Positions 3,091 through 54,104 of a DNA stretch of 64,000 nt are shown piece by piece. Within the stretch, counting starts at the first letter, position 1, and every line of letters starts with the position of its first letter. The translations under genes were made by a program, and so were the position numbers. Under the pieces are notes generated by a model. That model had not been told where the DNA came from and searched no databases. It worked only from the letters and a program-made list of their open reading frames with translations. The stretch is from Salibacter sp. (lineage in GTDB: Bacteria; Bacteroidota; Bacteroidia; Flavobacteriales_G; Salibacteraceae): positions 2,009 to 66,008 of the forward strand of contig NZ_JAVLBN010000003.1 of the NCBI RefSeq assembly GCF_031581065.1, in the 5' to 3' direction.

Positions 3091-4568
3091 AATAACTGTT
3101 TAATGCGTTTGCGTTCAATGGTCAGAACCGTAAACAGGAAGACGAGAAGTATTCCTGTGTTCAGGGTGTATTTCATCCAGCCTTCAAGTTCTGGAATCGT
3201 GCTGAGTCCATAGAGAGCTACAGCATAAGCCAAATAACCTAAAACTCTTTTTAGGTCGTATGGAATTGGGTTGTGTTTTTGGCCAAAGAAGTACGATAAA
3301 TAACACATACTGGCATAGGCTGCAAAAGTAGCCCATGCGGCTCCTTCATAGCCCATTTGCGGAATGAGCATGTAGTTGAGCACAACTGTAATGATGGCTC
3401 CAACTACAGCAAGATAAGCACCGTAAATTGTCAGGTTTTTAATCTTGTACCAAACACTCAGGTTGTAAGTCCAACCGAGGAAAATGTTGGCTAAAAGTAA
3501 AATTGGAACAATGTGTAATCCTTTCCAGTATTCCTCTCTTCCCAAAAAGTGTTTAAACAAATCGAGGTACATGAGTACGAATAAAAACATTCCCGATACG
3601 ATGATGGTAAACCAGTTCATGACATCGGCATAGGCGTGAGCCGCACCTTGTTGTTTTGCTCTAGAAAAGAAGAACGGCTCTACGGCATAGCGAAATGCCT
3701 GAATGAAGAGCGTGATTACGATGGAGAGTTTGTAAACACCTCCATAGATTCCAACCTGTGACTTTGCTGCTGTTTCACCGATTTCAGGTTCCAGAATTAC
3801 GCGAATGAGTCTCCTGTCAAGTGTTTCGTTGATGATGCCGGCAAAACCTGCAACCATAACGGGCAGTGCATAGATCAAAAGTGTTTTGATTTGCTGTGAG
3901 TCGAGTTTGAAGTGTACGAGCCTAAAGGTTGGTGATAGCGCGATAAACTTGATTCCGCTCGCAATCAGGTTGGCGATAAACACATATCCCACACCAATAG
4001 CCGGGTTGTAAAATGTGTCGATAACCCAGTTTGAAGTTCCTTCACGAGCTTCCGGAATGAGGTATCCGATGAAAAACAAGTTGAGCCCGATGTTGACGCC
4101 AATATTCAGGAAGTTGATAACAGCAAACTTCACTGATTTTTCATCTTTCCTTAGTTTGGCTAGCGGAATTGCCGATAATGCATCAAAACCGAGAGCCAGC
4201 CCCATCCACACGATGTACTCGGGGTTTTGCTCATATCCAATCCAGTCGGCCAGGAGGTTCTGACCGAAAATAATAATAATGAAAAAGATGACGGTGCTGT
4301 AAGACAAAAAGCCCAGCACGTTGCCAATTACTTTGTTGCTATCAGTGTTATGTTCGTTGATGTAGCGGAAATAGGCGGTTTCAAGCCCCCATGTGAGTAA
4401 GACAGCAAAAAAAGCTGAGAGTGCATAAATTTCAGTGATAACACCGTAATCAGCTGTGATGAATTGAGTCGTGTGCAGCGGCACCAATAGGTAGTTGAGA
4501 AACCGACCCAGCATGCTCGATAAGCCGTAAATAGCGGTTTGACCTGCCAGTTTTTTTAGTGCTGCCAT
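3087..4568 (-). CDS. Polysaccharide/oligosaccharide flippase (MOP/Wzx-like) membrane protein
   Basis: 493 aa and highly hydrophobic with about 12-14 helices. The N-terminal [26 protein letters not shown] is typical of polysaccharide biosynthesis flippases. It overlaps dut by 4 nt. Confidence 0.7.
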
Positions 4569-4634
4569 GAATTGATTTGTAGCTCAAAAGTAAAATTTAA
4601 AATCGGGTTGTGGGGAGAAGAAGCATTGTAACAA

Positions 4635-5615: not shown

Positions 5616-7067
5616 TTATTCAGAGCTCAACGGGAGCAAAATAGTGAAAGTGGTGCCTTCATTCACTTTTGTTTGGAAGTTGATTTCGCCTCCGGCAGCA
5701 ATTACGATATTCTTCACCATTGCCAATCCAAGGCCCATTCCGCTCGATTTTGTGGTGAAATTCGGACTAAAGATTTTCTCTTTCAATTCATCAGGAATGC
5801 CGCTTCCGTTATCGCTTATTTTCACGACAACATTTGAGTTTGTTTTTTCCAAAAAGATTTTGATTTCGGGCTCTCTTTCATCGGGCACGGCCTGCAATCC
5901 ATTTTTGATAAGGTTCGTGAAAGCGCGCAACAGGTGTTGTTTATCGGCAAAAACATAATGGTCAGATCCTTTTACATCAAGCTCGATTGCTCCGTTGTTG
6001 CGGTGCAACTCAATAGCCGAATTGAGGACAGATCTCAAACCAACTTTTTCGTTTTGTGCTTTTGGCATTTTGGCGAAATTGGAGAATTCATTCGCGATGC
6101 TTGAAAGTGTGTCGATTTGCTCAATTAGGTTCTGACCGATAGACTGAATGCGTTCTTCCAGCTCCTCAGGGTTTTGTTTTGCAGTGCGTTGAAGGTGCTG
6201 AATGTTGAGCCGCATTGGCGTGAGCGGATTTTTAATTTCGTGAGCAACCTGCCTGGCCATCTCTTTCCATGCAGATTCACGCTCGCTTTTGGCGAGTAAC
6301 TGTGCACTTTTTTCGAGCTCTTCCAGCATCCTGTTGTAGTCGTTGATGAGCTCGCCAATTTCATCTTTGCTGTTCCACTCAATGGGTTCATTTTTCTTGT
6401 TGATGCGCACTTCTTTGAGTTTCGCACTGATTTTTTTGAGCGTGTTGGTGATGTAGTTACTCAGTAGGAAAGCGACAATCGAGGCGAATAAAAACAACAA
6501 CACATAAACCTGGGCAAGAGTCAGCAGAAACGAAGAAACTTCATTCTGCATGGTTTGTGAGTCCTTGCGATACGGCAAATTGATAATAGCAATTTTCTTG
6601 TTGCCGTTCTCCAAAATGAAATAAGCGGAGAGATATTCCTCACCATCGAGCTGTTCCTTTTTGACGATGGATTCGTTGGGTTTGAGTTTGCCCAAAATTG
6701 AATCGTGGAGTGTTTTGGAGAAAACACCTTTTTCAAAAAGTTCAACCTGGGTTGAACCCAGTAAGTCACCATCAGTGGTATACACGTTTAGATCAACATC
6801 GTGAATTTCAGCCAATTCATGGATTTTGTTTTCCAGCTTTGCATTGACCTCTCTTATTCCGTTTTCAATGGTAAAATATTGCAGCGAAAGCATGATCGTG
6901 TTTTCCTGCTGCTGCAGTCTGTTTTGGTGAAACTGCTCGTTTCGGTTCTGAAAGAAAGCGTAGGTGGAAATACCGATGACAATGAGCGAAATGAGGATGA
7001 GCGCCATCATTGAAAGGTAGATGCGCGTACCCAATCCCAGTTTTAATGATTTTTTGCTCTTTGTCAT
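5616..7067 (-). CDS. Sensor histidine kinase (two TM segments, HAMP, HisKA, HATPase; NtrY-like H-box)
   Basis: 483 aa. H-box VAHEIKNPLTPM, N box FTNLIKNGLQA, G boxes SDNGSGIP and GMGLGLAMV. Confidence 0.88.
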   Translation of the reverse strand: MTKSKKSLKLGLGTRIYLSMMALILISLIVIGISTYAFFQNRNEQFHQNRLQQQENTIMLSLQYFTIENGIREVNAKLENKIHELAEIHDVDLNVYTTDGDLLGSTQVELFEKGVFSKTLHDSILGKLKPNESIVKKEQLDGEEYLSAYFILENGNKKIAIINLPYRKDSQTMQNEVSSFLLTLAQVYVLLFLFASIVAFLLSNYITNTLKKISAKLKEVRINKKNEPIEWNSKDEIGELINDYNRMLEELEKSAQLLAKSERESAWKEMARQVAHEIKNPLTPMRLNIQHLQRTAKQNPEELEERIQSIGQNLIEQIDTLSSIANEFSNFAKMPKAQNEKVGLRSVLNSAIELHRNNGAIELDVKGSDHYVFADKQHLLRAFTNLIKNGLQAVPDEREPEIKIFLEKTNSNVVVKISDNGSGIPDELKEKIFSPNFTTKSSGMGLGLAMVKNIVIAAGGEINFQTKVNEGTTFTILLPLSSE

Positions 7068-7107
7068 GGCTTATCTTTTCTTCAGATAAGCAAAAACCGG
7101 GCTAAAG

Positions 7108-8136
7108 TTATTCAGTGCCCTCGTCATTTGTAATTTCCTGAGCGCTTTCGTCAAGAATTTTGAATAACTGATCGAGGTTTGGCGTGAGGATTACTTCAAT
7201 TCTGCGGTTTTTTGCTTTACTTTCAGGAGTGTCGTTTGATGCGATTGGAAAGTGCTCTCCTCTACCGGCAGCTGTAAGCGTTTGTGGGTCGATGGAGCTA
7301 TTGTTCATCATAATTCTCACAACTGATGTAGCGCGCATCACAGAAAGGTCCCAGTTGTCTTTTATGCATGAAGAGCTTATAGGATCAGTATCGGTGTGGC
7401 CTTCAACCAGAATGGTGAGTTCATTTTGATTTTCCAAAGCTTTTGCTAATTGAACAACAGCTTTTGTACCTTCAGATCCGACACTTGTTGAGCCACTCGC
7501 AAATAGCAACTTGGCCTCCATTGAAACGTAAACGCGACCGTTGCGCTGTTCAACGGTAATACCTTTATCGGCAAAGCCTGTAAGTGCATCTTTTACTTTA
7601 TCGCGTAGTGCTTTTACAGCAGCATCCTTTTGAGCGATTATATTTTCGAGTTCCTGGACGCGTTTTTCACGAGCCTTGAGTTCTTCCTGGAGTTTGTTGA
7701 GTCTTTTTTCTTTGTCATCCAGTTTTTTGTCGAGCAGCTTGAGTTTGTCTTCCTTGATTTGAAGGTCGTCCTGTAGCGCCATTACTTCGCTCATCAGCTT
7801 GCGGTTTTCCGCATTCGACCCGCTTTCGAGAGCATCGGCCTTTTCACGAAGTTGTGTGTTGATTTTTTTGAGGCGATCAGTTTCGTGACGCAATTGGCGG
7901 TACTGTTTTGCTGTGGAAGCCGTATCGTCAATCATTGATCTCACAGCCTGCTTGAGCTTTTTTACCTCAGCTTTGAGCTCGGCATTTTCAGTTTCCAGGC
8001 GGTCTTTTTCTCCTGCGAGGTACTCGCGTTCTCCCTCGCATTTGTCGTATTTTGTTTTGAGTTCTTCAACGCGCTTTACAGGGACGCACGATGCAAACAG
8101 GGCGATGAACAAACTAAAAGCTATGAGTTTACGCAT
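7108..8136 (-). CDS. OmpA-family lipoprotein with a long coiled coil
   Basis: Start taken at ATG 8136 (MRKLIAFSLFIALFASC, lipobox). The ORF-track start at 8178 adds 14 unlikely residues. The heptad-rich middle is followed by a C-terminal OmpA-like domain (EGHTDTDP...NRRIEVIL). Confidence 0.8.
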   Translation of the reverse strand: MRKLIAFSLFIALFASCVPVKRVEELKTKYDKCEGEREYLAGEKDRLETENAELKAEVKKLKQAVRSMIDDTASTAKQYRQLRHETDRLKKINTQLREKADALESGSNAENRKLMSEVMALQDDLQIKEDKLKLLDKKLDDKEKRLNKLQEELKAREKRVQELENIIAQKDAAVKALRDKVKDALTGFADKGITVEQRNGRVYVSMEAKLLFASGSTSVGSEGTKAVVQLAKALENQNELTILVEGHTDTDPISSSCIKDNWDLSVMRATSVVRIMMNNSSIDPQTLTAAGRGEHFPIASNDTPESKAKNRRIEVILTPNLDQLFKILDESAQEITNDEGTE

Positions 8137-8234
8137 GATACAGATACATTTTTTCCAATATACAAAGGTTGATGTCAAACGCGCTCAAAACAATGGATAT
8201 TGCGCTATTTTATGAACAGATGTCTTTTGACAAC

Positions 8235-9446
8235 CTAAGGGATTAGTAAAGAACTGTCACCGTAACTCAAAAACCTGAACTCATTGTTGAGCGCATAACC
8301 GTACACTTTTTTCCAGTCAGACCCAATAAGAGCTGCGACCAGTAGCAAAAGTGTGCTTCCGGGCTGATGAAAATTGGTGATGAGTCCGTCACACACCTTA
8401 AACTTGTATCCCGGGGCGATGATAATCTCAGTTTGTCCACTCAACTTGTCAAGTTTGTGGTGCTTCATGTATTCCAGAATCATTTGGAGCGACTCACCTC
8501 TGGATGCATCCCACGGCTCATCGTAGGGTTCCCACTGCCCGATGCGAAACGGCATTTCCATTTTGAAGCCGTGCTTAGCGATTTGTGCGCCAACCCAATA
8601 AAGACTCTCCATCGTGCGCATGGCAGTTGTTCCAACGGTTATGAGTTTTTTATCATCCGTTTTGAGTAGTTCTTCAATGGTTTTTTTATTCACTTCAAAA
8701 AACTCACCGTGCATAGCGTGATCACCAATTTTATCGGTTTGCACGGGTCTGAATGTGCCGGCACTCACGTGCAGAGTAATTTGAGAAGAGTTGATTTTTG
8801 CTTTTTCAATATCGGTCAGAACCGAAGGCGTGAAGTGCAAACCCGCAGTGGGTGCAGCAACTGATCCTTCCACTTTGGCGAAAACTGTTTGATAGCGTGA
8901 TTTGTCTTCCTCCTCAGCTTCTCGTGTCATGTAAGGAGGTAATGGAACTTTTCCGGCTTCTTCCAAAAGTTGAGAAAAGGTGAAGTTTTTAGGCTCCCAG
9001 CTAAACTCGATCAAAAAGCGGACATCTTCCCTGTCGATTTTTTTGACATTCAATAGATCGCCTCTTCCCGTTTGGAGCGTGAGTTTTTCTTCTTTCCATT
9101 TTTTTGCTCCGCCAACCATGCACCACCAGCGTGTGCTTTTGGTTTGTGAAAGAGCCAGCTCAGCGCTCGGTTCTGACTGTGGCTCGAGACAAAATACTTC
9201 GATAACACGCCCGTTTCGGTTGCGGAAAAACAGCCGGGCGGGAACGACCTTTGTGTTGTTAAAAATTAGGTGACTGTTTGATGGCAGCTCTTTTGGTAGC
9301 TGATTGAAGGTTTTGTGATCGATTTGTCTCTTCCTGTAAGTGAGAAGTTTTGAGCTATCTCGTGGTTCAACAGGGTATTGAGCGATTTTTTCATCGGGCA
9401 GGTTGTACTGGTAGCTCGCGATTGAAATTTCCTTGGGATGGGCCAT
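8235..9446 (-). CDS. queA: S-adenosylmethionine:tRNA ribosyltransferase-isomerase
   Basis: 403 aa. The N-terminal YNLPDEKIAQYPVEPRDSSKLL, TAGLHFT and C-terminal FRFLSYGDSSLL are QueA hallmarks. Confidence 0.9.
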   Translation of the reverse strand: MAHPKEISIASYQYNLPDEKIAQYPVEPRDSSKLLTYRKRQIDHKTFNQLPKELPSNSHLIFNNTKVVPARLFFRNRNGRVIEVFCLEPQSEPSAELALSQTKSTRWWCMVGGAKKWKEEKLTLQTGRGDLLNVKKIDREDVRFLIEFSWEPKNFTFSQLLEEAGKVPLPPYMTREAEEEDKSRYQTVFAKVEGSVAAPTAGLHFTPSVLTDIEKAKINSSQITLHVSAGTFRPVQTDKIGDHAMHGEFFEVNKKTIEELLKTDDKKLITVGTTAMRTMESLYWVGAQIAKHGFKMEMPFRIGQWEPYDEPWDASRGESLQMILEYMKHHKLDKLSGQTEIIIAPGYKFKVCDGLITNFHQPGSTLLLLVAALIGSDWKKVYGYALNNEFRFLSYGDSSLLIP

Positions 9447-9483
9447 TCTTAACTTTTTGACAAAAGTAAAGATGACGGATTTA

Positions 9484-9645
9484 TCAGCTATCTAGCTTTT
9501 CTATTTCTTTCAATACATCATCAGCTTCCTGCATTTTTTGATCGGCAGCCTTTCTGTCTTTATGCGATAGAGCGTGTGACTCCTCCATCAATTTTTTGTA
9601 TTTCTTTTGAAGTTTCTTTTTGGGATCAGAATTGAATAGTCCAAA
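9484..9645 (-). CDS. Small conserved hypothetical protein (Lacal_2735-like)
   Basis: Likely start is MFGLFNSDPKKKLQKKYKKLMEE at 9645. It is a small basic/acidic helical protein of a type common in Flavobacteriia. Confidence 0.5.
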   Translation of the reverse strand, partial: FGLFNSDPKKKLQKKYKKLMEESHALSHKDRKAADQKMQEADDVLKEIEKLDS

Positions 9646-9696
9646 CATATTATCTCTATTTATGATTAGAACAGTCATAGTCTGCTAATGTTCGCG

Positions 9697-12141
9697 CTAT
9701 TCGAATTTCAATTGCATTTTTTGAATGCGGCTTTCGAGTGATTCTGCAATGAATTTTTCCCTCAATCGATCTACCATCACGGGAAAGGCGAAGGGAGTGG
9801 GCTTTTCAGGTTCTGACAGAATAAACTCCTGGCTGTTGATGCGTTCAAGTGTTTTGAATAGCCTGTTAAACTCGAGTTGAAACTCCATGGCTTCTTCAAA
9901 TGCTTCTTTATAAAGTAGATTGCGCGGTTCGTAATCGCGAAATACATCGAAAAACAGTTGTGAGGAAGATTGCAGGTGTCGGTCAGATTTTGATTTTCCG
10001 GGATAGCCTTTGAATACGAGTCCGCTAATGCCGGCAATTTCGCGAAACCTCCTTCGAGCCATTTCTGATGCATTGATGCTGTTTTGAATATCATCCATCA
10101 AATGCTCAGTAGTGAAAAGGTTATTGTCAATTGCTTCCTGTATAGGTACCGGTTGATCGCTGAGTAATTCAAATCCGTAATCGTTGACTGCGATAGAGAA
10201 CGAGATAGGCTTGAGTAAACTCATGCGATAAGCGATTAGGCTGGCGATTCCTTCATGAACAAAGCGGCCGTCAAACGGATACATGCAGCAATGGTGGCCC
10301 TCTTTACTTTCAAAAGATTCTATGAGAAACTCGTTTTCCAGCGGAACATGACTTCGCTCTTTTTGAAAGTTCAGGAGTGGCTGAATAGTCTTGAGTTCAA
10401 CATCCGATCCGGTGTTTAAAATGGCTTCTTGCATTTTTTCGCGGAGCATTTCAGATAAGTTGCTGCTCAAAGGCATTCTTCCTCCCTGCCAACTGGGAAT
10501 TTTTCCGGTTTTGCTTTTACTCCTTTTTACCTGAACGACCATGTCTTTGATTCTCACTAGTTCAAGACTTCTTCCGGCAAACCAAAAGACATCGCCAGGC
10601 TTGAGTTTTGAGATAAACGACTCTTCAATTGAGCCTATTCTTCCTCCTGAAACAAATTTTACCGTTAGCATAGCATCAGAGACGATTGCTCCAATTTGCA
10701 AGCGATGCCTCATGGCTACTTTTCTGCTCGTTACTTTGTAGAGATTGTCTTCCAGCACTTCAACTTTGTGGTATTCATTATAGCTGTGTAGGCTGTCACC
10801 TCCTGTTGTGATGAAATCCAGGCACCAGAGCCATTCATCATCATTGATACTGTTAAAACTGAATGTGGATTTTATCTGTTCCAGTGTTTCATCGGGATAG
10901 AAACCATCACCAACAGCAAGAGTGGTGAGGTATTGAACCAAAACATCAAACGACCGGATATAAGGAGTTCGTTCCTCCATGTAATTTTGGTCGATCGCTT
11001 TTCTCAGTGCAGCCGCCTCAATCAGCTCGAGCGAATGAGTTGGAACGAAGTAGATTTTACTTTTCTCTCCCGGTCGGTGTCCACTTCTCCCTGCTCGTTG
11101 AGCAAACCGAGCTACTCCTTTTGGTCCGCCAATTTGAATAATCGTTTCAACAGGTCTAAAATCAACTCCCAGGTCGAGGCTCGATGTGCACACTACAGCT
11201 TTTAGTCGTTCGTCATGCAGAGCATCCTCAACCCAATCGCGCAGTTCCCCTGAAATAGAGCCGTGATGCATGGCTATTTGTCCGGCTAATTCAGGATCTT
11301 CATCCAGAATTCGTTGATACCAAATTTCACATTGAGAACGCGTATTGGTGAAAATAAGAGTTGTTTTGCTTTCATTGATAATGGGGACAACTTTTGCCAG
11401 GAGCTTTATGCCGAGGTGCCCGCTCCATGGAAACTTTTCAACTTCATCGGGTAAAACAGAAATGATCTCGAGCTCTTTTTTGATATCTGCTTTAATGAAA
11501 GCCGTTTTTTGTGGGTCGTGGTCAGATCCGAGTAATACTTCCATCGATTCCTCCATATTACCGATCGTAGCTGAAATGCCCCATACGCGCAATTTGTTGG
11601 AGAGGGATTTGAGTCTGCTCAGAGCCAGCTCCATCATCACCCCTCTTTTAGAGCCCATCAACTCGTGCCATTCATCACATACAACAGCTTTGAGGTTTTT
11701 GAATCGCTTTGAGGCATTTTTTTGTGCGAGGAGTAAGTGTAAACTCTCAGGAGTCGTGATCAATATTTGCGGCATTTTACGTGATTGGCGGGCTCGTTCT
11801 TTACTTGATGTGTCCCCGGTTCTGACCGAAACCTCCCAGGGAATATCGAGACCCTCAATCATTCTTTTACTGGATAGGTGAATTTCTTTACTCAGCGCCC
11901 GAATTGGCGTAATCCAGATGACTTGAAGTCCGCGAGGCTGTTTGTAGTTTGCTTTTTGTGAACTGAGATATTCAGCAACTATTCCGCCAAGCATGGCATA
12001 AGTCTTCCCCGAACCTGTTGGTGCATTGATCAATCCGTTCTTTCCAGATCGATATGCTGACCAGGCTTCCTTTTGAAATGGAAAAGGCTTCCAGCCCTTA
12101 TCAGAAAACCAGTTTTTAACTAATGATGTACCTGCTGCCAC
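9697..12141 (-). CDS. Lhr-core / ligase-associated-type DEXH-box helicase
   Basis: 814 aa. Walker A NAPTGSGKT, DEWH box (VVCDEWHEL), motif VI QRAGRSGHRPG, and a long C-terminal DEAD/H-associated region. Confidence 0.8.
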   Translation of the reverse strand: MAAGTSLVKNWFSDKGWKPFPFQKEAWSAYRSGKNGLINAPTGSGKTYAMLGGIVAEYLSSQKANYKQPRGLQVIWITPIRALSKEIHLSSKRMIEGLDIPWEVSVRTGDTSSKERARQSRKMPQILITTPESLHLLLAQKNASKRFKNLKAVVCDEWHELMGSKRGVMMELALSRLKSLSNKLRVWGISATIGNMEESMEVLLGSDHDPQKTAFIKADIKKELEIISVLPDEVEKFPWSGHLGIKLLAKVVPIINESKTTLIFTNTRSQCEIWYQRILDEDPELAGQIAMHHGSISGELRDWVEDALHDERLKAVVCTSSLDLGVDFRPVETIIQIGGPKGVARFAQRAGRSGHRPGEKSKIYFVPTHSLELIEAAALRKAIDQNYMEERTPYIRSFDVLVQYLTTLAVGDGFYPDETLEQIKSTFSFNSINDDEWLWCLDFITTGGDSLHSYNEYHKVEVLEDNLYKVTSRKVAMRHRLQIGAIVSDAMLTVKFVSGGRIGSIEESFISKLKPGDVFWFAGRSLELVRIKDMVVQVKRSKSKTGKIPSWQGGRMPLSSNLSEMLREKMQEAILNTGSDVELKTIQPLLNFQKERSHVPLENEFLIESFESKEGHHCCMYPFDGRFVHEGIASLIAYRMSLLKPISFSIAVNDYGFELLSDQPVPIQEAIDNNLFTTEHLMDDIQNSINASEMARRRFREIAGISGLVFKGYPGKSKSDRHLQSSSQLFFDVFRDYEPRNLLYKEAFEEAMEFQLEFNRLFKTLERINSQEFILSEPEKPTPFAFPVMVDRLREKFIAESLESRIQKMQLKFE

Positions 12142-12257: not shown

Positions 12258-12542
12258 ATGCAAACCTTAGGGAAAATAAAAGGGGTAGATTTTATACAAA
12301 CCGATATTAGTGTAAAAAAAGGCAGTGCTATAGTACCTTTACTCAGAAATAACCGAGGCCTTCATGGTTTTGTGAATAACAAGGTTTACGATTACCGCGT
12401 TCAGGGTCTCGGGTTTGCTATAAGAAATAACATGATCAATAGCTTCCTAAGAGGAGAGGAAAGAAAAGTTGAACTCGAAGAAGTTGACTCAGATAAAGTT
12501 GAAGAAGAAAACGAAGAAGAAATCACAGAGGAAGAGGATTAA
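12258..12542 (+). CDS. Hypothetical 94-aa protein; possible remnant of the C-terminal half of a trypsin-like (HtrA/S1C) protease, with an acidic tail
   Basis: FIQTD..KGSAIVPLL...GLHGF...GLGFAIRNNMI resembles FIQTDAAINPGNSGGPL...G.GFAIP of HtrA. The catalytic GNSGG box is degenerate and the His/Asp half is missing. Confidence 0.35.
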   Translation: MQTLGKIKGVDFIQTDISVKKGSAIVPLLRNNRGLHGFVNNKVYDYRVQGLGFAIRNNMINSFLRGEERKVELEEVDSDKVEEENEEEITEEED

Positions 12543-45402: not shown

Positions 45403-45435
45403 ATTGCGATTTATTAATTTCTAAATCAAATAAAC

Positions 45436-46059: not shown

Positions 46060-46063
46060 TCTA

Positions 46064-46618: not shown

Positions 46619-49532
46619 TTATTTACTAAATCTTAAATCGCTTCTCATATGTTTAATTTTCATTGTGCCATCTATTATTTACTCTCAGGTAACAGAAGGG
46701 CCATCTATTGATACAACTGAGTTTTTCAAAAACCTAGATTCAACGAATAATTTATCTAATCCTGGCACAACGGATAGCCTAATTTATTTTTCATCATTTA
46801 AGACTTTTTTTGAGGGCGATAATGAGATTGTTTGGAAAAGCCTCAACATAAAATATAGAGCGCCTGACACCCGAGACTTCAAACTGAAATTGTTCTACTC
46901 TGATTTTTTTCAGCTATTATCAGCTAATAATGAATATGCTTTTAGCCAGGCCAAAGAGATAGACACAACCATTCTTTTACCATTTAGAGTAAAAGAAAAT
47001 TCAAGTCTTGAGGGAGGCACTACGACCAGCATAAGTGCTCAACTCCTTATCAATGAGCAGGAATTAGTTAAAGAGGCTATATCATTTCTCCATTATAAAA
47101 GAAAATCATCCTGGGACTTTAGTGCTGAGTTGAGTAATCCTTTGTGGTTGAAAAATGAAGCTGAAAAAAAAGTTTACGTTCGTGTATCGAACAAGAGCAA
47201 TTACACACAAACTTTTAATGTGAAGCTGAAGGCTCGAAGCACACAATCTTCTGAAGAAAAGATTTTTAAAATTAAGAAAAGAGCAGATACAGCTCTTGCC
47301 TTTAAAATCAAAAACCCTTCAACTAATTCTTTTGATGAAAACAGGATAACAATTGAGGTGGTTAATTCTGGTGAAACGAAGCGCCAAATTCTTTACACTC
47401 ATAATCCAGGTTCTAATTATGAAAATACCACTTACTTCACAGAAACACCAGCCAACCTGGAAGTTGGGGCTTTTAATTTTGGCTCTGGAGCCTCACCCAC
47501 ATACTCATTAAGAAGCTGGGGAGATATTCATTTTTCTTCCAATGAGAGGCTCCAGTATTCCTTCAACTTCTTCAATATTCTTTTTGACAGTCCTAATGTT
47601 GATCTTTGGAGATACAGTAGGCTCTCAATTATAGCTGATTTTCCAGGGTTAACCGTAAACGCAGGAGATCAAACTCTGGGGAACTTTTATCCAGAATGGG
47701 GAAGGGGCTTAAGCGCAACAAAAGTCTTCCAGGAATCAAATAATGAGGTTTCATTAGGTGCGGTAAATAACCTTTTTTTTGATAGAACAACATACAACGC
47801 CTCTGGGAAATTGCGTTTTGGTAATGTAGTATTAAGACCTTCATTTTCCAGGTCAACAGATGCTTCTAATCTGGTTCAAAAAATTGAAGGTAATATTTTT
47901 AGTGACTTCAGAATAAAAAAGCATTTAATATCAGCTGGTCTTTCTTTTTCACAAAGACAACACCTATATGATACGAATTCATTTAACACGCCATCACAGT
48001 TTTATCTTCCAGGCAGGACTCTAAATGGCTATGCTTATTCCCTAAGGTATGGGTTTTCAAATAAACTCTGGAGGATAAGACTAAAAACAAGAACCAAGTC
48101 AAAGTATCACGCAGGAGCATTTACCGGAACACAAAATCAAAGACTTCAAGTCACAAGAACGATCTCGCGAAAAAGCAGGGTCAGTGGTAGAGTTTCAAGA
48201 AGAAAGTTTGAGCCTTCTGAAACGTTTAGAGGGGTTTTGAGTAACCTGAACTATTACGATCTCACAAGAGCTATGCTCTTGTACCGAACCGAGATCTTAA
48301 AAACTAACCTTTCCTTTGGAACAAACTTTTTATATTCTGAAATAAGCAATAATTTAAATCAGTTAGATGGCACACCACTCGATTTAAATATTTATACCTC
48401 GCCAAGAATATATACGCGCTTATCTGGCAAAATTTCCTCTTATAGAATAAGCGCTCAGGCACAAGTTGGCCCAGTATATTTAAATCAAACCACACCAATT
48501 AACTTTTCCAATAATGCTTATCAAATTGGAGTAAATATCACTGATAACATTTCAAATATTTCATTGCGGTTTAATGATGGGTTAATTATACCCTCTGTTA
48601 CTGGTTTAAACTCATACACGCTCAATAACTCTCAAAGTTTTTTCTTGGCCTATCGTTACCGAAAAACACTTCTTGACCAAATGCTCGATCTCAACTTTAA
48701 CCTAAATTACAGTAATTACATAGAAGCACAAAGCACATTGGTTAGTGCATTTTTACAAAGTGACCTAAAGTTGAATCATGGCATTGAATTATCAGCATAT
48801 TTGAATTTTTCAACGGTAAATTATCAAAACCGTGAAACACAAACTCAATCACTTTTTACTAATGCAGGTTTTGCTCTGAGGAAAAAGTTTGACGTAAATC
48901 AGCCACAACTGAAGTATTTTGATTTGAGCTTTAATACTTTTTTTGACGAAAATGGTAACAATCAGCTCGACTCTACCGAGCTAAATATTCAAAATGTATT
49001 AGTGGAACTCGAAAACGTTATTGATGATAACCAGTCCGTTGAAAAGCGTTTACTTTCAAATGAAAGTGGAAAAGTGAATTTTAAGGACTTACCAGAAGGA
49101 AATTACACAGCTCATTTCACCCCCGTTGGAAAAAGCGAAATTAACCTTGGAGAAAAGGCTATATCATTCATGTTAAATAGTGATAAGACAGAAGATATTC
49201 CTTTATCTGAGGAATACAGCTTAAAGGGTCGGGTTATTTTTCAAAAAGCTAAGTTTTCTAGCGTTCAAAGTCTTGACTTTTCCAAAATTAAGTTAATAAT
49301 AAATGGACCCAGGGGTAAAGAAATCAAGACCTGGGCTTCTGATGATGGTCGTTTTAACTTTAACCTCAACAAAACCCCCGGGATTTATAAGCTATCAATT
49401 GACACTTCATTGTTACCTGATAACATTCTTGTAGAAAAACAATCTTATTATTTTGAAATGAATGGATTAAAAAGTTACTCAATTAACTTTAAGCTTTTTG
49501 AAAAAGAAAGGAAGTTAAATATAACAGAGTAG
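46512..49532 (+). CDS. Large (about 970-1006 aa) outer-membrane usher-like protein candidate; start uncertain
   Basis: A signal-like segment LKSLLICLIFIVPSIIYSQ begins right after the previous stop with no canonical start codon nearby. The nearest ATGs (46512, 46521) overlap the previous gene. The body has Ig-like N-terminal modules and a long amphipathic beta region containing LTVNAGDQTLGNFYPEWGRGLSATKVF. The C-terminal domain is SdrD-B/carboxypeptidase-regulatory-like (NGNNQLDSTELNIQNVLVEL...GKVNFKDLPEGNYTAHF). Confidence 0.45.
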   Translation: MFNMNLAQLIAPVNSQVSNLIFIQLKLNLYLNRFFDYLLNLKSLLICLIFIVPSIIYSQVTEGPSIDTTEFFKNLDSTNNLSNPGTTDSLIYFSSFKTFFEGDNEIVWKSLNIKYRAPDTRDFKLKLFYSDFFQLLSANNEYAFSQAKEIDTTILLPFRVKENSSLEGGTTTSISAQLLINEQELVKEAISFLHYKRKSSWDFSAELSNPLWLKNEAEKKVYVRVSNKSNYTQTFNVKLKARSTQSSEEKIFKIKKRADTALAFKIKNPSTNSFDENRITIEVVNSGETKRQILYTHNPGSNYENTTYFTETPANLEVGAFNFGSGASPTYSLRSWGDIHFSSNERLQYSFNFFNILFDSPNVDLWRYSRLSIIADFPGLTVNAGDQTLGNFYPEWGRGLSATKVFQESNNEVSLGAVNNLFFDRTTYNASGKLRFGNVVLRPSFSRSTDASNLVQKIEGNIFSDFRIKKHLISAGLSFSQRQHLYDTNSFNTPSQFYLPGRTLNGYAYSLRYGFSNKLWRIRLKTRTKSKYHAGAFTGTQNQRLQVTRTISRKSRVSGRVSRRKFEPSETFRGVLSNLNYYDLTRAMLLYRTEILKTNLSFGTNFLYSEISNNLNQLDGTPLDLNIYTSPRIYTRLSGKISSYRISAQAQVGPVYLNQTTPINFSNNAYQIGVNITDNISNISLRFNDGLIIPSVTGLNSYTLNNSQSFFLAYRYRKTLLDQMLDLNFNLNYSNYIEAQSTLVSAFLQSDLKLNHGIELSAYLNFSTVNYQNRETQTQSLFTNAGFALRKKFDVNQPQLKYFDLSFNTFFDENGNNQLDSTELNIQNVLVELENVIDDNQSVEKRLLSNESGKVNFKDLPEGNYTAHFTPVGKSEINLGEKAISFMLNSDKTEDIPLSEEYSLKGRVIFQKAKFSSVQSLDFSKIKLIINGPRGKEIKTWASDDGRFNFNLNKTPGIYKLSIDTSLLPDNILVEKQSYYFEMNGLKSYSINFKLFEKERKLNITE

Positions 49533-49543: not shown

Positions 49544-50215
49544 TTAGTCTTTTTCATGCTTTGATAGGCTCTCAGCGAAGAACTTCCTGTGAAAGATTAA
49601 AATAATCCCAACTCCAATTGAAATGGCTGTATCAGCAATGTTGAAAATGGGTCTGAAAAAGATAAAATGATCACCACCAACGAGCGGAACCCAATCAGGA
49701 AAAAAGCCGCTGATGAGTGGGAAGTAGAGCATATCCACAACTTTTCCGTGCATCCAGGTTCCGTAACCGCCACCCTCGGGGAATAGTTGTGCAATGCTGT
49801 AATAGCTGTCGCTGAATATGACTCCGTAAAATACTGAGTCAATGATGTTTCCCAACGCACCGGCCAGAATGAGTGTTACCCCAATGACAGCCCCTTTAGG
49901 TGCGCCTTCTTTGGTAATTCTTACAATGTATCGCGCAATGAAAAACACGGCCACAATTCGAAAGAGGGTTAGGAAGAGCTTGCCGTAGTCACCGCCAAAC
50001 TCCATCCCGAAAGCCATTCCGGGATTTTCAGTGAAGTGAATAATAAACCAGTCGCCCAAAACAGAGAACTCTTCGTTCAGGTACATGTTGAGCTTTACCA
50101 TGAACTTAGAGATCTGGTCGATAAGTAAAACTCCCAGTAGTACTAATACCGGGAGTTGAAAATGTTTTTCGTTTTTAGCCAAACTGATCGATGCTGCGGT
50201 TGCTGTTGACAACAA
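49544..50215 (-). CDS. lspA: Lipoprotein signal peptidase II
   Basis: 223 aa with LIDQISK, GALGNIIDS and FNIADTAISIG motifs. Confidence 0.88.
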   Translation of the reverse strand: MLSTATAASISLAKNEKHFQLPVLVLLGVLLIDQISKFMVKLNMYLNEEFSVLGDWFIIHFTENPGMAFGMEFGGDYGKLFLTLFRIVAVFFIARYIVRITKEGAPKGAVIGVTLILAGALGNIIDSVFYGVIFSDSYYSIAQLFPEGGGYGTWMHGKVVDMLYFPLISGFFPDWVPLVGGDHFIFFRPIFNIADTAISIGVGIILIFHRKFFAESLSKHEKD

Positions 50216-50593
50216 TTATTGCATTCGCTTAGCTTCAATGCTAAGGGTTGCGTGTGGAACTACTCTCAAGCGGTCTTTTGAAATGAGTTTTCCGGTTTTA
50301 CGGCAAACACCGTAAGTTTTGTTTTCAATGCGAACGAGTGCAGCTCTCAGGTGTTTGATAAACTTTTCCTGGCGAGCAGCTAATTGAGCAGTTTCTTCAC
50401 GAGAAAGTGTGTCAGATCCATCTTCCATCATTTTGAAAGTTGGAGATGTATCATCAGTTCCGTTATTGTTGTGTGAAATACTCGAGTTTAAAAGTTCGAG
50501 ATCTTTTTCAGCTTCAACAATTTTTTTGTCAATAATTTCTTTGAACTCAGCTAGCTCAGCATCGCTATATCTGTTTTTTTCTTTTGTTTCCAT
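50216..50593 (-). CDS. DksA/TraR-family protein
   Basis: 125 aa. Coiled-coil N-terminal part and a C-terminal YGVCRKTGKLISKDRLRVVPHATLSIEAK typical of Bacteroidota DksA-like proteins. Confidence 0.75.
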   Translation of the reverse strand: METKEKNRYSDAELAEFKEIIDKKIVEAEKDLELLNSSISHNNNGTDDTSPTFKMMEDGSDTLSREETAQLAARQEKFIKHLRAALVRIENKTYGVCRKTGKLISKDRLRVVPHATLSIEAKRMQ

Positions 50594-50618: not shown

Positions 50619-53600
50619 TTAAGTTCTTTCAATTTTAAACTTACAGGTGAGGTCTTCATTAAGCTCGCTTTCATGAACGTTATCGCCTGAAAGTGAGTCT
50701 ACAAAATTTAGCTCATCTGCCAATGTTTCCGCGCAAATATAATCGAAATTATCGTTTACTGCAGCGGTTAACAATTCTTGTGATTCAACAGTGATCTCAA
50801 TGCGGTCAGTTACGTCAAAACCACTGTCTTTACGCAGGTTTTGAATGCGGTTGACTAATTCACGCGTAATTCCCTCGTGGCGCAATTCATCATTCAGTTG
50901 AATGTCGAGTGCAACGGTAATTCCGTTTTCTGTCATAACGAGCCATCCGGGAATATCGTCAGTCGAAATCTCAACATCATCAATTGTGAGGGTTACATTT
51001 TCACCCTGAACCTCGATTTGGATCTGACCATTGCGTTCCAGCTCGTTGATATCTTCCTGTTCAAACTGATTGACAGCGGCTGCTATACCCTTCATCAGTT
51101 TGCCGTATTTTGGGCCTAGCGCTTTGAAATCGGGCTTGATCTGTTTTACCAATACGCCTTTCGTATCGTTGAGGAATTCGATTTCTTTGATGTTCGTTTC
51201 CGTTTTGATGAGGTTTGCCACATCGCTCAGTTGACGCTCAAAGGTGTCGTTCAGAACCGGAACCATGATCTTTTGAAGTGGCTGGCGAACTTTGATACTC
51301 TCTTTCTTGCGAAGAGCTAGAATCATTGAAGATACTTGCTGAGCGATAGACATGCGCTCTTCGAGGTCGGTGTCGATTTCACTTTCAACAACTTCTGGCA
51401 TGAAAGCGAGATGAACACTTTCCTGATCTTCTTTTGAGGTAACGCTGTTCAGATCGCGGTACAATTGCTCTGCGTAAAACGGAGCTATTGGAGCAGCCAG
51501 CTTTGCAACTGCCGTGAGACATTCGTAAAGCGTTTGATAAGCTGCAATTTTATCCTGACCGTAATCACCTCGCCAAAAACGTTTACGACTGAGGCGTACG
51601 TGCCAGTTCGATAGGTTTTCAACGACAAACTCCTGAATCAACCGGCCTGCTTTTGTTGGCTCGTAATCAGCGTAAGCTGCGTCAACTTCTTTGATGAGTG
51701 AGTTGAGTTTTGAAATTACCCAGCGATCGATCTCAGGGCGATCTTTGATGTCTATTTTATCCTCGCTGAAAGTAAAGCCATCTACGTTGGCGTAGAGCGA
51801 GAAGAAAGCGTAGGTATTTTGAAGGGCTCTGAAGAACTTGCGTTTAACTTCATTAACTCCTTCGAGATCAAACTTGAGGTTATCCCACGGCTGAGCATTC
51901 GTGATCATGTACCAGCGAATAGCATCTGTACCGTATTTTTCCATCGCTTCAAATGGCTCAACAGCATTGCCAAGGCGCTTCGACATCTTTTGTCCGTTCT
52001 TGTCGAGAACGAGTCCGTTTGAAACGACATTCTTGTAAGCTACGCTATCAAATATCATAGACCCGATGGCGTGCAACGTGAAGAACCAACCGCGTGTTTG
52101 GTCAACTCCTTCAGCGATGAAGTCGGCCGGGTAAGATTGGTTCTGATCGATAGCTTCTTTGTTTTCAAATGGGTAGTGATGTTGTGCGTAAGGCATTGAA
52201 CCGGAATCGAACCAAACATCAATCAAATCCTTTTCACGAGTCATCGTTTCACCCGATTTGCTCACGAGTTTTACATCATCAACATAAGGACGGTGAAGAT
52301 CAATTTGATCGTAATTCGATTCATCCATATTGCCTGGTTTGAAGTCAGCGAGCGGATTGTTGTCCATCACTCCGGCTTCAACGGCTTTGTCGATTTCGTC
52401 TTTCAGTTCTTCAACTGATCCCACGACTTTTACTTCGTCACCCTCTTCAGTTGTCCATACAGGAAGCGGAATTCCCCAGTAGCGTGAACGGGATAAATTC
52501 CAGTCGTTGAGGTTTTCGAGCCAATTCCCGAAACGGCCTTCACCGGTTGCTTTTGGTTTCCAGTTGATCGTTTTGTTGAGCCCGATCATTTGATCCTTCA
52601 TCTCAGTTGAGCGGATGAACCACGAATCGAGCGGGTAGTAGAGAACCGGCTTATCAGTACGCCAGCAATGCGGATAGCTGTGCGTGTACTTTTCAACATT
52701 AAAGGCGAGCCCTTCCATCTTGAGTTTGATGGAAATGCGCTCGTCAACGCTCAAATATTTATCAATGTTCTTGATGACATCTTTTAAATCGGTTTGTTGC
52801 TTTTTAAGGGCTTCTTCCTTTTCCTCATCGGTGAGGTACTCTTCTTTTACATATTCACCGCCAATTCCAAAAACATCATCTTTTACGGTTTCAAGGAATT
52901 TACCCTGTAAATCTACGAGTGGACTCGGGTTTCCGTTTTTGTCTTCCACGAGCATTGGTGGAACTCCGGCTTCTTTTGCTACGCGGGCATCATCAGCACC
53001 AAATGTTGGAGCGGTGTGAACGATTCCGGTACCATCTTCGGTAGTGACAAAGTCGCCCGGAATTACGCGAAAAGCATCATCCGGATTTTCCATCGGTTTG
53101 GCGTATGGAAGTAGTTGCTCGTAGTTTGTGCCCACGAGGTCTTTACCTTTGAACGATTCTGCGATGTAAAACGGAATCTTCTTGTCGCCTTTTTGGAAAG
53201 CTACAACGCCTTCAAGCGTATCGACCTGTTGGAATTTCTTTCCGAGGACGTTTTTGACAAGGTCCTTAGCCAACACGATAAATATTGGCTCGTGCGTGTA
53301 TTGGTTGAAGGTTCTGACCAGCACATAATCGATTTTTTCACCTACGGTCAGAGCCGTGTTTGAGGGCAACGTCCAGGGTGTAGTGGTCCATGCCAGCAGA
53401 TAGAGATTACCTTCTTCATAAGCAGCTTTAAGAGCCGGTACCTTGAAAGTAGAATCGGCAACTTTAAACTGTGCGATGATTGTTGTGTCCTTGACATCGC
53501 GATAGCAACCGGGCATGTTGAGCTCGTGCGAGCTGAGCCCGGTACCGGCTTTTGGCGAATAAGGCTGAATGGTGTAACCCTTGTAGAGCAAGTTCTTTTC

Positions 53601-54104
53601 GTGAAATTGCTTGAGCAACCACCACACTGTTTCGATGTATTTTGTTTTGTAGGTGATATACGGATCGTCCATATCCACCCAATACCCCATTTTTTCTGTG
53701 AGGTTGTTCCAGATATCAGTATAGCGCATTACCGCTTCGCGGCAGGCTTTGTTGTAATCAGCAATGGAAATTTTATCACCGATGTCTTCTTTGTTGATGC
53801 CCAGCTCCTTCTCAACGCCTAATTCAACTGGGAGTCCGTGTGTATCCCATCCAGCTTTGCGTTTTACCTGTTTGCCTTTCATCGTTTGATAGCGGCAAAA
53901 AAGGTCTTTGATGGTGCGGGCCATCACGTGGTGGATGCCCGGTTTCCCGTTAGCAGACGGAGGTCCTTCGTAAAAGACGAATGGGTCAGAACCGGTGCGT
54001 TCTTCAACCGACTTTTCAAAGATGCGGTTGTTTTTCCAGAATTCGTTTATTTCATCTGCAACCTCTGTGAGGTTTAACTGCTTGTATTCGTTGAATTTCG
54101 CCAT
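50619..54104 (-). CDS. ileS: Isoleucine--tRNA ligase
   Basis: 1161 aa. Class I HIGH-type motif (PSANGKPGIHHV) and KMSKS (KMSKRLGN), with the long Bacteroidota-type C-terminal extension. Confidence 0.95.
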   Translation of the reverse strand: MAKFNEYKQLNLTEVADEINEFWKNNRIFEKSVEERTGSDPFVFYEGPPSANGKPGIHHVMARTIKDLFCRYQTMKGKQVKRKAGWDTHGLPVELGVEKELGINKEDIGDKISIADYNKACREAVMRYTDIWNNLTEKMGYWVDMDDPYITYKTKYIETVWWLLKQFHEKNLLYKGYTIQPYSPKAGTGLSSHELNMPGCYRDVKDTTIIAQFKVADSTFKVPALKAAYEEGNLYLLAWTTTPWTLPSNTALTVGEKIDYVLVRTFNQYTHEPIFIVLAKDLVKNVLGKKFQQVDTLEGVVAFQKGDKKIPFYIAESFKGKDLVGTNYEQLLPYAKPMENPDDAFRVIPGDFVTTEDGTGIVHTAPTFGADDARVAKEAGVPPMLVEDKNGNPSPLVDLQGKFLETVKDDVFGIGGEYVKEEYLTDEEKEEALKKQQTDLKDVIKNIDKYLSVDERISIKLKMEGLAFNVEKYTHSYPHCWRTDKPVLYYPLDSWFIRSTEMKDQMIGLNKTINWKPKATGEGRFGNWLENLNDWNLSRSRYWGIPLPVWTTEEGDEVKVVGSVEELKDEIDKAVEAGVMDNNPLADFKPGNMDESNYDQIDLHRPYVDDVKLVSKSGETMTREKDLIDVWFDSGSMPYAQHHYPFENKEAIDQNQSYPADFIAEGVDQTRGWFFTLHAIGSMIFDSVAYKNVVSNGLVLDKNGQKMSKRLGNAVEPFEAMEKYGTDAIRWYMITNAQPWDNLKFDLEGVNEVKRKFFRALQNTYAFFSLYANVDGFTFSEDKIDIKDRPEIDRWVISKLNSLIKEVDAAYADYEPTKAGRLIQEFVVENLSNWHVRLSRKRFWRGDYGQDKIAAYQTLYECLTAVAKLAAPIAPFYAEQLYRDLNSVTSKEDQESVHLAFMPEVVESEIDTDLEERMSIAQQVSSMILALRKKESIKVRQPLQKIMVPVLNDTFERQLSDVANLIKTETNIKEIEFLNDTKGVLVKQIKPDFKALGPKYGKLMKGIAAAVNQFEQEDINELERNGQIQIEVQGENVTLTIDDVEISTDDIPGWLVMTENGITVALDIQLNDELRHEGITRELVNRIQNLRKDSGFDVTDRIEITVESQELLTAAVNDNFDYICAETLADELNFVDSLSGDNVHESELNEDLTCKFKIERT

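Follow-up and report, generated by a model that had tools for sequence, protein, structure and literature searches.

The 64-kb stretch of Salibacter DNA analysed here (positions 2,009 to 66,008 of contig NZ_JAVLBN010000003.1; hereafter the window), part of a metagenome-assembled genome (MAG), is dotted with copies of a short word, GGNTCTGA, which has the general form GG-N-TCTGA and is usually followed by CC. The word is hyper-abundant, independent of reading frame and a feature of the DNA itself. Explanations as an artefact of protein or codon sequence, as an RNA motif or as a mobile repeat are ruled out, as is, within the 74 kb sampled, a polar architecture word. Its pattern is suggestive of an uptake sequence, and we tentatively propose that GGNTCTGA(CC) may serve as a double-strand-DNA 'self' tag of the genus Salibacter, with a DNA-uptake system as its putative reader.

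Within the window, GGNTCTGA occurs 65 times against an expectation of 6.24 ± 2.44, and its 10-mer form GGNTCTGACC occurs 28 times against 0.17, so that the observed/expected ratio is 10 for the 8-mer and >100 for the 10-mer. These ratios hold under higher-order models and codon-aware shuffles and, over the sequence covered here, do not fall to near 1 under a higher-order Markov background, the genome-wide outcome that would have refuted the original prediction. The window has 40.5% GC, and at every length from 8 to 12 nt its most frequent word is this one or an extension of it. The signal had been noticed through the 9-mer GGTTCTGAC/GTCAGAACC, for which at least 20 exact copies on both strands were claimed; all 20 are present, compared with a mean of 0.46 (maximum 3) in dinucleotide-preserving shuffles and 0.25-0.47 expected under Markov models of order 0 to 4. 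They start at 3121, 4256, 6128, 8815, 9169, 9809, 11818, 13371, 14971, 20328, 20632, 21657, 23437, 25706, 27731, 36559, 37189, 42036, 53310 and 53985, within 1 nt of the coordinates first read by eye except for one copy that had been placed at 9819 and actually lies at 9809, and their orientation is balanced (11+/9-) as had been stated. A recount likewise agrees on 14 copies of GGTTCTGACC, 34 of GGTTCTGA (7 ending in T and 7 in A) and 9 of the variant GGATCTGAC, and corrects two others: GGCTCTGAC is present 5 rather than 4 times and GGGTCTGAC 3 times rather than once. The longer form CGGTTCTGACCG has 5 copies. When the window is lengthened by 9.6 kb of adjoining MAG DNA, to 73.6 kb in total, the extension adds 10 sites and the count becomes 75, or about one per kb; the frame and strand results below refer to this lengthened region.

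The motif profile is strict and short. Positions 1, 2 and 4-8 of GGTTCTGA are essentially fixed, with 0-2 copies for each single-base variant when all variants are scanned. Position 3 is free with T preferred (T 34, A 17, C 8 and G 6 among the 65 window sites), position 9 ranks C > A > T with G in 2 of the 65, C prevails at position 10, a purine occupies position 11 and a mildly A-rich tail lies beyond. Conversely, 28 of the 32 copies of TCTGACC in the window are preceded by GGN. Beyond positions 0 to 14 the flanks hold almost no information. The optimum form is (C)GGTTCTGACC(G/A)(A/T), and what recurs is just the 8 to 12 nt of the word, with no longer repeat and no hairpin. The consensus TTCGGT-TCTG-ACCGAA had invited a hairpin or cruciform reading, which was rejected as its arms neither co-vary nor co-occur.

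Most sites (72 of 75) lie inside open reading frames (ORFs), in a region that is about 93% coding, and intergenic DNA is not favoured. Of the genic sites, 35 are in the sense and 37 in the antisense direction of their gene. The five frame and orientation classes in use hold 18, 17, 17, 12 and 8 sites; the sixth, which would read xGG-NTC-TGA and give a stop codon, is empty. The use of five reading frames and the presence of two intergenic GGTTCTGAC copies had both been pointed out beforehand and are confirmed. After synonymous-codon shuffling within genes, which keeps the proteins and the codon usage of each gene, 14.4 ± 3.5 genic copies (maximum 24) are expected rather than the 72 observed, and codon-order shuffling gives 8.2. 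Whichever base stands at N, the genic copies outnumber those left by synonymous shuffles: 34 are found for T where 5.0 are expected, 21 for A (4.3 expected), 11 for C (2.4) and 6 for G (1.7). It had been cautioned that the A variant might owe its abundance to one frame, and 12 of the 21 genic GGATCTGA copies are indeed read as GGA-TCT-GAx (Gly-Ser-Asp/Glu), 6.7-fold above the 1.8 expected, but its other frames are enriched as well, with 9 copies against 2.5 expected from synonymous shuffles. Every frame and every N variant is thus above its expectation, and the view that the word acts at the DNA level and is no protein motif or codon bias is borne out by the shuffles and by frame use.

A second 8-mer of the same DNA behaves differently. 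CGAGTCCG is found 9 times in the window, where about 0.55 copies would be expected, and 11 times, where the figure is about 0.6, once the extension is included (for example at 5238, 10017, 15759, 29677, 29998, 31179, 38933 and 52010). On the coding strand it reads C-GGA-CTC-G (Gly-Leu) in 10 of 11 copies, all in one frame, which marks it as a codon-pair or dipeptide word in contrast to GGNTCTGA. It also occurs in Salibacter halophilus loci (5 copies) and is missing from two relatives.

The word is shared with a cultured species and with none of the other Flavobacteriales loci sampled. The salt-loving Salibacter is the type genus of Salibacteraceae within the Flavobacteriales (PMC7214798), and the IleS protein of the window MAG is 98% identical to that of S. 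halophilus. Three loci of this species (L220, L223 and L224, 62.1 kb in total) carry 73 copies of GGNTCTGA, or 1.2 per kb, and L224 alone has 25 against 2.5 ± 1.5 expected. The word is absent from 80 RadA-anchored GTDB species loci of up to 71% identity among the matches listed, which do not include S. halophilus, and from 16 metagenome loci, and a helicase-based metagenome scan gave no close relatives. Nor do four further Salibacteraceae lineages have it, among them GCA_002705995.1 and a Logan contig (73-75% IleS identity), and relatives of similar GC with homologous proteins lack it. As far as the sample shows, the word would therefore appear to have arisen within or just before the genus Salibacter.

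About 85 related Flavobacteriales loci have no comparable dispersed word of their own, apart from local tandem repeats and one Weeksellaceae palindrome. The palindrome, TCGGCCGA, occurs 7 times in 21 kb of an uncultured Weeksellaceae MAG (CAYWRZ010000003.1, locus L033) against 0.54 from shuffles, lies between 5600 and 18324 and is often extended to TTCGGCCGAAG. The family is also that of the naturally competent Riemerella, and the palindrome is possibly a HIP-like word. The local repeats are unrelated to the Salibacter word: they are tandem or clustered, comprise ACCTGAAGC found 14 times, a CTAACTAA-type unit found 15 times and a 42-nt period array, and occur at L067 (about 6 kb span), L045 (56 nt) and L021 (336 nt). 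A scan of viral contigs for CGGTTCTGACCGAA returned single chance hits only. Two giant-virus-like loci from IMG/VR (L149 and L144) contain GGNTCTGA 11 times in 14.3 kb, mostly as GGNTCTGAT. One such contig, with moderately many GGNTCTGAT, was dropped because its position-9 profile differs from that of Salibacter, and the abundance there is probably a compositional effect.

Alignment of the MAG with S. halophilus (42,972 columns, 9.7% divergence) reveals that the word itself is under protection between the two Salibacter species. Intact in S. halophilus are 46 of the 53 aligned MAG sites, compared with a proportion of 0.537 for random 8-mers keeping their seven corresponding positions (P=3e-7). 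By variant, GGTTCTGA is kept at 25 of 25 sites (P=2e-7) and GGATCTGA at 13 of 15 (P=0.008), and the figures for GGCTCTGA (5 of 9) and GGGTCTGA (3 of 4) are not significant. Directly outside the word, divergence is at the background rate of 7-10%; the raised divergence beside sites that has been reported for Neisseria uptake sequences is not seen in these flanks. Neisseria sites are similarly conserved relative to their surroundings (PMC2397512), and those of the cyanobacterial word HIP1 are also conserved between genomes (PMC5861425). The sites of the window are given below by coordinates, strand, word, ORF (with its strand) and fate in S. halophilus (kept, not kept or no alignment); two further sites form the inverted pair described later.

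772-781, minus: GGGTCTGACC, antisense in ORF 28-1572(+); no alignment
1147-1154, plus: GGATCTGA, sense in ORF 28-1572(+); no alignment
3120-3129, minus: GGTTCTGACC, sense in ORF 3087-4568(-); kept
4256-4265, plus: GGTTCTGACC, antisense in ORF 3087-4568(-); kept
5960-5969, minus: GGATCTGACC, sense in ORF 5616-7067(-); kept
6128-6137, plus: GGTTCTGACC, antisense in ORF 5616-7067(-); kept
6944-6951, plus: GGTTCTGA, antisense in ORF 5616-7067(-); kept
7472-7479, minus: GGATCTGA, sense in ORF 7108-8178(-); kept
8317-8324, minus: GGGTCTGA, sense in ORF 8235-9446(-); kept
8745-8752, plus: GGGTCTGA, antisense in ORF 8235-9446(-); kept
8814-8823, minus: GGTTCTGACC, sense in ORF 8235-9446(-); kept
9169-9176, plus: GGTTCTGA, antisense in ORF 8235-9446(-); kept
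9809-9816, plus: GGTTCTGA, antisense in ORF 9697-12141(-); kept
11520-11529, minus: GGATCTGACC, sense in ORF 9697-12141(-); kept
11619-11626, minus: GGCTCTGA, sense in ORF 9697-12141(-); kept
11818-11827, plus: GGTTCTGACC, antisense in ORF 9697-12141(-); kept
13371-13378, plus: GGTTCTGA, antisense in ORF 12539-13579(-); kept
14127-14136, minus: GGATCTGACC, sense in ORF 13572-15053(-); kept
14971-14978, plus: GGTTCTGA, antisense in ORF 13572-15053(-); kept
15873-15882, minus: GGATCTGACC, sense in ORF 15148-16557(-); kept
16131-16138, plus: GGTTCTGA, antisense in ORF 15148-16557(-); kept
17823-17830, plus: GGTTCTGA, antisense in ORF 16845-18104(-); kept
17873-17880, minus: GGTTCTGA, sense in ORF 16845-18104(-); kept
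17993-18002, plus: GGCTCTGACC, antisense in ORF 16845-18104(-); kept
19701-19708, plus: GGATCTGA, antisense in ORF 18863-20617(-); no alignment
20327-20336, minus: GGTTCTGACC, sense in ORF 18863-20617(-); no alignment
20632-20639, plus: GGTTCTGA, antisense in ORF 20595-21593(-); no alignment
21409-21416, minus: GGATCTGA, sense in ORF 20595-21593(-); no alignment
21658-21665, minus: GGTTCTGA, intergenic; no alignment
21889-21898, plus: GGCTCTGACC, sense in ORF 21682-22056(+); no alignment
23436-23445, minus: GGTTCTGACC, sense in ORF 23364-24188(-); no alignment
23891-23898, plus: GGTTCTGA, antisense in ORF 23364-24188(-); no alignment
24936-24945, plus: GGGTCTGACC, antisense in ORF 24199-25530(-); no alignment
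25240-25247, plus: GGCTCTGA, antisense in ORF 24199-25530(-); no alignment
25705-25714, minus: GGTTCTGACC, antisense in ORF 25651-27696(+); no alignment
25831-25838, plus: GGTTCTGA, sense in ORF 25651-27696(+); no alignment
25894-25901, plus: GGTTCTGA, sense in ORF 25651-27696(+); no alignment
29962-29971, minus: GGATCTGACC, sense in ORF 29615-30463(-); no alignment
30211-30218, plus: GGTTCTGA, antisense in ORF 29615-30463(-); no alignment
30350-30357, plus: GGATCTGA, antisense in ORF 29615-30463(-); no alignment
34667-34674, minus: GGTTCTGA, antisense in ORF 34115-35290(+); no alignment
35953-35960, plus: GGATCTGA, antisense in radA 35335-36708(-), synonymous in conserved LLRS; kept
36517-36526, minus: GGCTCTGACC, sense in radA, LALTE where orthologues have QLVTE-like residues; not kept
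36559-36568, plus: GGTTCTGACC, antisense in radA, SVRT where orthologues have PGIA/GIST; kept
36822-36831, minus: GGATCTGACC, sense in ORF 36724-37215(-); kept
37189-37198, plus: GGTTCTGACC, antisense in ORF 36724-37215(-); kept
39114-39121, plus: GGGTCTGA, antisense in ORF 38637-39482(-); kept
40289-40296, plus: GGATCTGA, sense in ORF 39611-40438(+); kept
41366-41373, plus: GGATCTGA, sense in ORF 40413-41849(+); not kept
42035-42044, minus: GGTTCTGACC, antisense in glmS 41858-43702(+); kept
42238-42245, plus: GGTTCTGA, sense in glmS, synonymous in conserved EVLI; kept
43144-43153, plus: GGCTCTGACC, sense in glmS; not kept
49649-49656, plus: GGGTCTGA, antisense in ORF 49544-50215(-); not kept
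50412-50419, minus: GGATCTGA, sense in ORF 50216-50593(-); kept
51020-51029, plus: GGATCTGACC, antisense in ileS 50619-54104(-); kept
51251-51258, minus: GGTTCTGA, sense in ileS; kept
51825-51832, plus: GGCTCTGA, antisense in ileS; not kept
52139-52146, plus: GGTTCTGA, antisense in ileS; kept
53310-53319, plus: GGTTCTGACC, antisense in ileS; kept
53346-53355, minus: GGCTCTGACC, sense in ileS; kept
53984-53993, minus: GGTTCTGACC, sense in ileS; kept
57884-57891, plus: GGATCTGA, sense in ORF 55556-58135(+); no alignment
62995-63002, minus: GGTTCTGA, sense in ORF 61406-63601(-); kept

The site-bearing proteins were aligned to homologues from 97 loci, and gaps at the sites are nearly absent from the orthologue alignments shown; the copies were created by point substitution rather than insertion. 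Some sites are synonymous within conserved peptides, such as LLRS in RadA, LALSR and xxRT in the helicase, EVLI in GlmS, and EFRP/FFRP. Others coincide with residues unique to the lineage in variable stretches, for instance SVRT instead of PGIA/GIST at RadA 47-50, LALTE instead of QLVTE at RadA 61-65, and NGQNL for GEQNK and GALTE for GTISS in GlmS. Of 22 sites that could be ranked by conservation within their own gene, six are in the lowest part, at the 6th percentile or under. Synonymous choice at conserved residues and changed residues at variable positions have both been described for the uptake signal sequence (USS) of Pasteurellaceae (PMC2817400).

Accessory DNA is depleted of the word, as two parts of the window illustrate:

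43712-49532: word-free island of five ORFs, GC about 35-36%, no copy; absent there in S. halophilus
54105-61927: word-poor stretch of 32-39% GC, 1 site in 7.8 kb; mostly unalignable to S. halophilus beside ileS

In the aligned core, density is 1.2 sites per kb, at which about 7 sites would be expected in the island rather than the 0 observed. In S. halophilus, ileS-dksA-lspA directly abuts glmS where the MAG has the 43.7-49.5 kb island. The island was probably gained recently, or else lost from the sister species. The word-poor stretch carries a gene for a protein with a type IX secretion system (T9SS) tail along with sensor kinase and response-regulator genes. In the segments that S. halophilus alone has, 8.3 kb in all, there are 5 sites. 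From base composition we estimate that lower GC would cut the chance expectation by only about 30%. The DNA uptake sequence (DUS) of Neisseria is likewise absent from recently acquired genes (PMC2397512).

Several gene-content differences accompany these segments. One of the five island ORFs encodes a 1006-aa SdrD_B-like protein. Between its DUF4837 and helicase genes S. halophilus carries two genes for trypsin-like proteases, and before queA it has an extra 544-aa ORF. None of these three is in the MAG, and the S. halophilus segments 6722-9902 and 12725-14359 of locus L223 contain one word copy each.

Only 3 of the 75 sites are intergenic, and among them is one clear terminator-like inverted pair:

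27711-27740, plus: inverted pair GGGTTCTGA-N12-TCAGAACCC followed by TTCCTTTTGA, containing the sites 27712-27719(+) and 27730-27739(-)

Situated between convergent genes, the pair begins 15 nt past the stop codon that ends the S9-peptidase gene (25651-27696), and a terminator scan predicts a 12-pair stem with 6 G-C pairs and a T-rich tail, so that it looks like a terminator hairpin. Inverted DUS pairs are known to act as terminators (PMC2397512).

Overall, the strands are used nearly equally (43+/32-, binomial p=0.25), with splits of 19/15, 13/7 and 11/10 in sub-regions, the first of which includes 20 co-oriented genes at 1.9-25.5 kb. GC skew along the region has no switch point, and a strand skew of 70% is rejected (P=0.013) for this 74-kb sample without a mapped origin; within these 74 kb, the lack of skew argues against a polar word of the Chi or FtsK-orienting polar sequence (KOPS) type. 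The original prediction had put the word down as an uptake-sequence or Chi-class signal; the uptake-like pattern fits, and the Chi/KOPS class does not, as no sub-region is skewed. Spacing of all sites is not regular but Poisson-like (coefficient of variation of the gaps 0.97-1.19).

Neighbouring sites tend to be opposite in orientation, an effect observed post hoc. Of the 74 adjacent pairs, 50 are oppositely oriented, where permutation gives 36.7 ± 4.2 (P=0.001), and the tendency is strongest among pairs closer than 500 nt (26 opposite and 7 same, compared with 24 and 17 for pairs farther apart). Within one orientation the gap coefficient of variation is 0.78 and 0.65, compared with 0.97 for all sites in the word-rich part. 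S. halophilus has 24 opposite and 6 same pairs under 500 nt, most of these sites being orthologous to those of the MAG; in its independent 9.8 kb, 6 of 12 adjacent pairs are opposite, as are 4 against 2 of the six pairs under 500 nt. The 13 sites of that segment (L224:1-9776 of WACR01000007.1, which has no counterpart in the window) read --++--++--++-, in runs of two, in a small sample. The excess of opposite orientation among close neighbours is therefore exploratory, with weak independent replication. If the alternation is real, orientation matters to whatever reads the word, and it would be predicted by a directional reader (a Chi-like end-processing enzyme or directional uptake) or by selection against close direct repeats.

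The explanation that we tentatively favour is that the word works like an uptake sequence. A force acting on the DNA itself would maintain it in resident core DNA at a density of about one copy per kb: word-carrying fragments would be preferred by a natural-transformation apparatus through its DNA receptor, at the surface or in the periplasm, and would then recombine into the chromosome. Such biased uptake and recombination, with or without selection, could spread and preserve the word wherever the protein code tolerates it, through synonymous codons at conserved residues and amino-acid changes at variable ones, and newly acquired DNA would lack the word until it had been resident long enough. 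Density, a double-strand signal, presence in core DNA only, conservation, protein changes, the inverted pair and restriction to one lineage together make up the published DUS/USS signature. Uptake biology is plausible for Salibacter given that Riemerella, another member of the Flavobacteriales, has natural competence with a preference for DNA of its own kind; its non-canonical machinery comprises ComEC, DprA, ComF and several proteins reported as mainly found in Flavobacteriaceae, and no uptake sequence has been defined for it (PMC7965970, PMC8459023). It is also possible, if rather doubtful, that GGNTCTGACC represents the first DNA uptake or self-recognition sequence outside Proteobacteria, one that would be read in an orientation-sensitive manner by non-canonical Flavobacteriales machinery without ComP or a type IV pilus receptor and whose orientations would be kept interleaved. 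To our knowledge, interleaved orientations have not been described for DUS, USS, Chi or HIP1.

The closest parallel is the DUS of Neisseriaceae (GCCGTCTGAA and its dialects), which is likewise a 10-mer with about one copy per kb that occurs within genes and in either strand, is over-represented in core DNA and is lacking in recently acquired DNA. Genomes of roughly 2 Mb hold 1,471-1,892 USS or DUS copies (PMC2817400). In both words the sites are far better conserved than their surroundings (PMC2397512) and a short strict core is bordered by graded flanks (PMC3630211); they even share the pentamer TCTGA, including the essential DUS core CTG (PMC3630211), which is probably a coincidence. DUS belongs to another phylum, and one would not expect Salibacter to have its ComP minor pilin and type IV pilus receptor. 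Furthermore, 96% of the Salibacter copies are genic compared with about 35% of DUS in N. meningitidis (PMC2817400), one internal position is free, and close neighbours tend to opposite orientation even inside genes. For DUS, uptake bias is a demonstrated function, whereas the Salibacter word is likened to it from sequence pattern. The USS (AAGTGCGGT / ACAAGCGGT) is similar in being mostly intragenic, with 65% in H. influenzae ORFs, in altering tripeptide frequencies in several frames at poorly conserved residues, and in being missing from genes without homologues in relatives (PMC2817400); the Salibacter word has all these features, some of them as trends. The two sequences are unrelated, and USS has helically phased AT tracts where the Salibacter word has only mild A-richness 3' of the core.

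Several observations weigh against an uptake function. The family-wide dialects typical of uptake sequences are not found: the word is confined to one genus and two Salibacter genomes, with no dialects in the sister genera sampled, although some Neisseriaceae also lack DUS (PMC3630211). The shift of sites toward poorly conserved residues is a trend only (mean -0.11, Wilcoxon p=0.10). The preponderance of opposite pairs under 500 nt in the MAG and in S. halophilus is not predicted by orientation-blind uptake. Among the roughly 70 genes of the window and extension there is no competence, pilus or methyltransferase gene, and about 93 kb of non-redundant Salibacter DNA contains no com or pil genes. 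We know of no natural competence in the genus. The comparison also covers about 74 kb of MAG and about 62 kb of S. halophilus DNA, of which about 43 kb is orthologous.

Two other functions for such a word deserve consideration, and we regard each as unlikely. One is a Chi-like signal, read on one strand by a helicase-nuclease of the AddAB/RecBCD type that would switch from degradation to RecA loading; interleaved orientations would let either end of a two-ended break soon meet a correctly oriented copy. Chi (GCTGGTGG in E. coli), like KOPS and other architecture-imparting words, is an asymmetric 8-mer that varies between lineages, tolerates coding and is enriched in core DNA, and the Salibacter word is similarly asymmetric, 8-10 nt long, strict at 7 positions, lineage-specific, enriched in core DNA and lacking in accessory DNA. 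The local orientation effect and the more even gaps within one orientation would suit such an enzyme. However, Chi and KOPS are skewed to one replication strand and modestly over-represented, whereas the Salibacter word is unskewed and its 10-fold (8-mer) and >100-fold (10-mer) excess is well above that of described Chi sites; the alternation is moreover post hoc, and the independent S. halophilus segment shows it in only half of its pairs. The other is a word resembling HIP1 (highly iterated palindrome 1) of cyanobacteria (GCGATCGC), whose abundance would be tied to an orphan methyltransferase, biased repair of the very-short-patch type or a nucleoid-organising protein, with no role in uptake. 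HIP1 is 15- to 300-fold hyper-abundant and frame-independent, its sites are conserved and its function is unsettled (PMC5861425), all of which recall the Salibacter word; word-biased repair would both create and protect sites, and a strict profile with one free position resembles the recognition site of a single DNA-binding enzyme. On the other hand, HIP1 is a perfect palindrome, an orphan-methyltransferase target and phylum-wide, whereas the Salibacter word is asymmetric, with quasi-palindromic arms that do not co-vary, and genus-specific, and is not known to be linked to a methyltransferase; its gaps over 74 kb are overall Poisson-like, and no methyltransferase or repair gene was seen in the Salibacter DNA examined. 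According to recent preprints, HIP1 is itself tied to transformation and horizontal transfer, so that this alternative may not be distinct from an uptake function.

Explanations that deny the word a role of its own in double-stranded DNA fare far worse. A dispersed mobile or structured repeat (repetitive extragenic palindrome, REP; miniature inverted-repeat transposable element, MITE; or hairpin element) or a transcript motif acting as RNA could be read into the hairpin-like consensus and the terminator-like stem of the one inverted pair. Yet the copies sit inside ORFs without breaking them, leave almost no gaps in orthologue alignments, have arms without covariation and are flanked by uninformative sequence that diverges at the background rate, so that the conserved flanks named beforehand as the mark of a mobile repeat are not seen; sense and antisense copies are equal in number, which speaks against RNA. 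This possibility is effectively refuted. The same is true of the view that the word simply follows from protein sequence, from biased codon pairs or from a local bias in mutation, to which we give hardly any credence. Its attractions are the concentration of GGATCTGA in the Gly-Ser-Asp/Glu frame and the existence of a real codon-pair word, CGAGTCCG, in the same window. Against it stand the roughly equal use of five frames with only the stop-creating one empty, the much lower count left by synonymous shuffling (14.4 against 72), the excess in each frame and variant, the lack of the word in relatives of similar GC with homologous proteins, and site conservation far above background, since mutation bias alone would not protect the sites.

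Compared with other word classes, the Salibacter word lacks the polarity of KOPS, the palindromic octamer of HIP1 and the shared flanks and intergenic location of REP or MITE elements, and it has the density, double-strand action, core enrichment and between-genome conservation of uptake sequences. The literature searched contains no description of this word, of an uptake-sequence-like word in Bacteroidota or of a genome-word analysis in Salibacter.

Detailed knowledge of sequence-specific DNA uptake is limited to Neisseriaceae and Pasteurellaceae, and the origin of self tags has long been debated between molecular drive, core-genome repair and a barrier to foreign DNA. In practical terms, the word could improve genetic tools for these bacteria and would be a sharp marker for binning Salibacter DNA and spotting recently acquired islands. 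A 10-mer with the genomic hallmarks of an uptake sequence is now at hand in the cultivable S. halophilus KCTC 52047, a member of the same order as Riemerella. As this species is in culture, the uptake hypothesis is directly testable, and the word would provide a ready-made probe for finding the receptor. If it proves to be unrelated to uptake, it would be a second HIP1-like enigma, in a new phylum.

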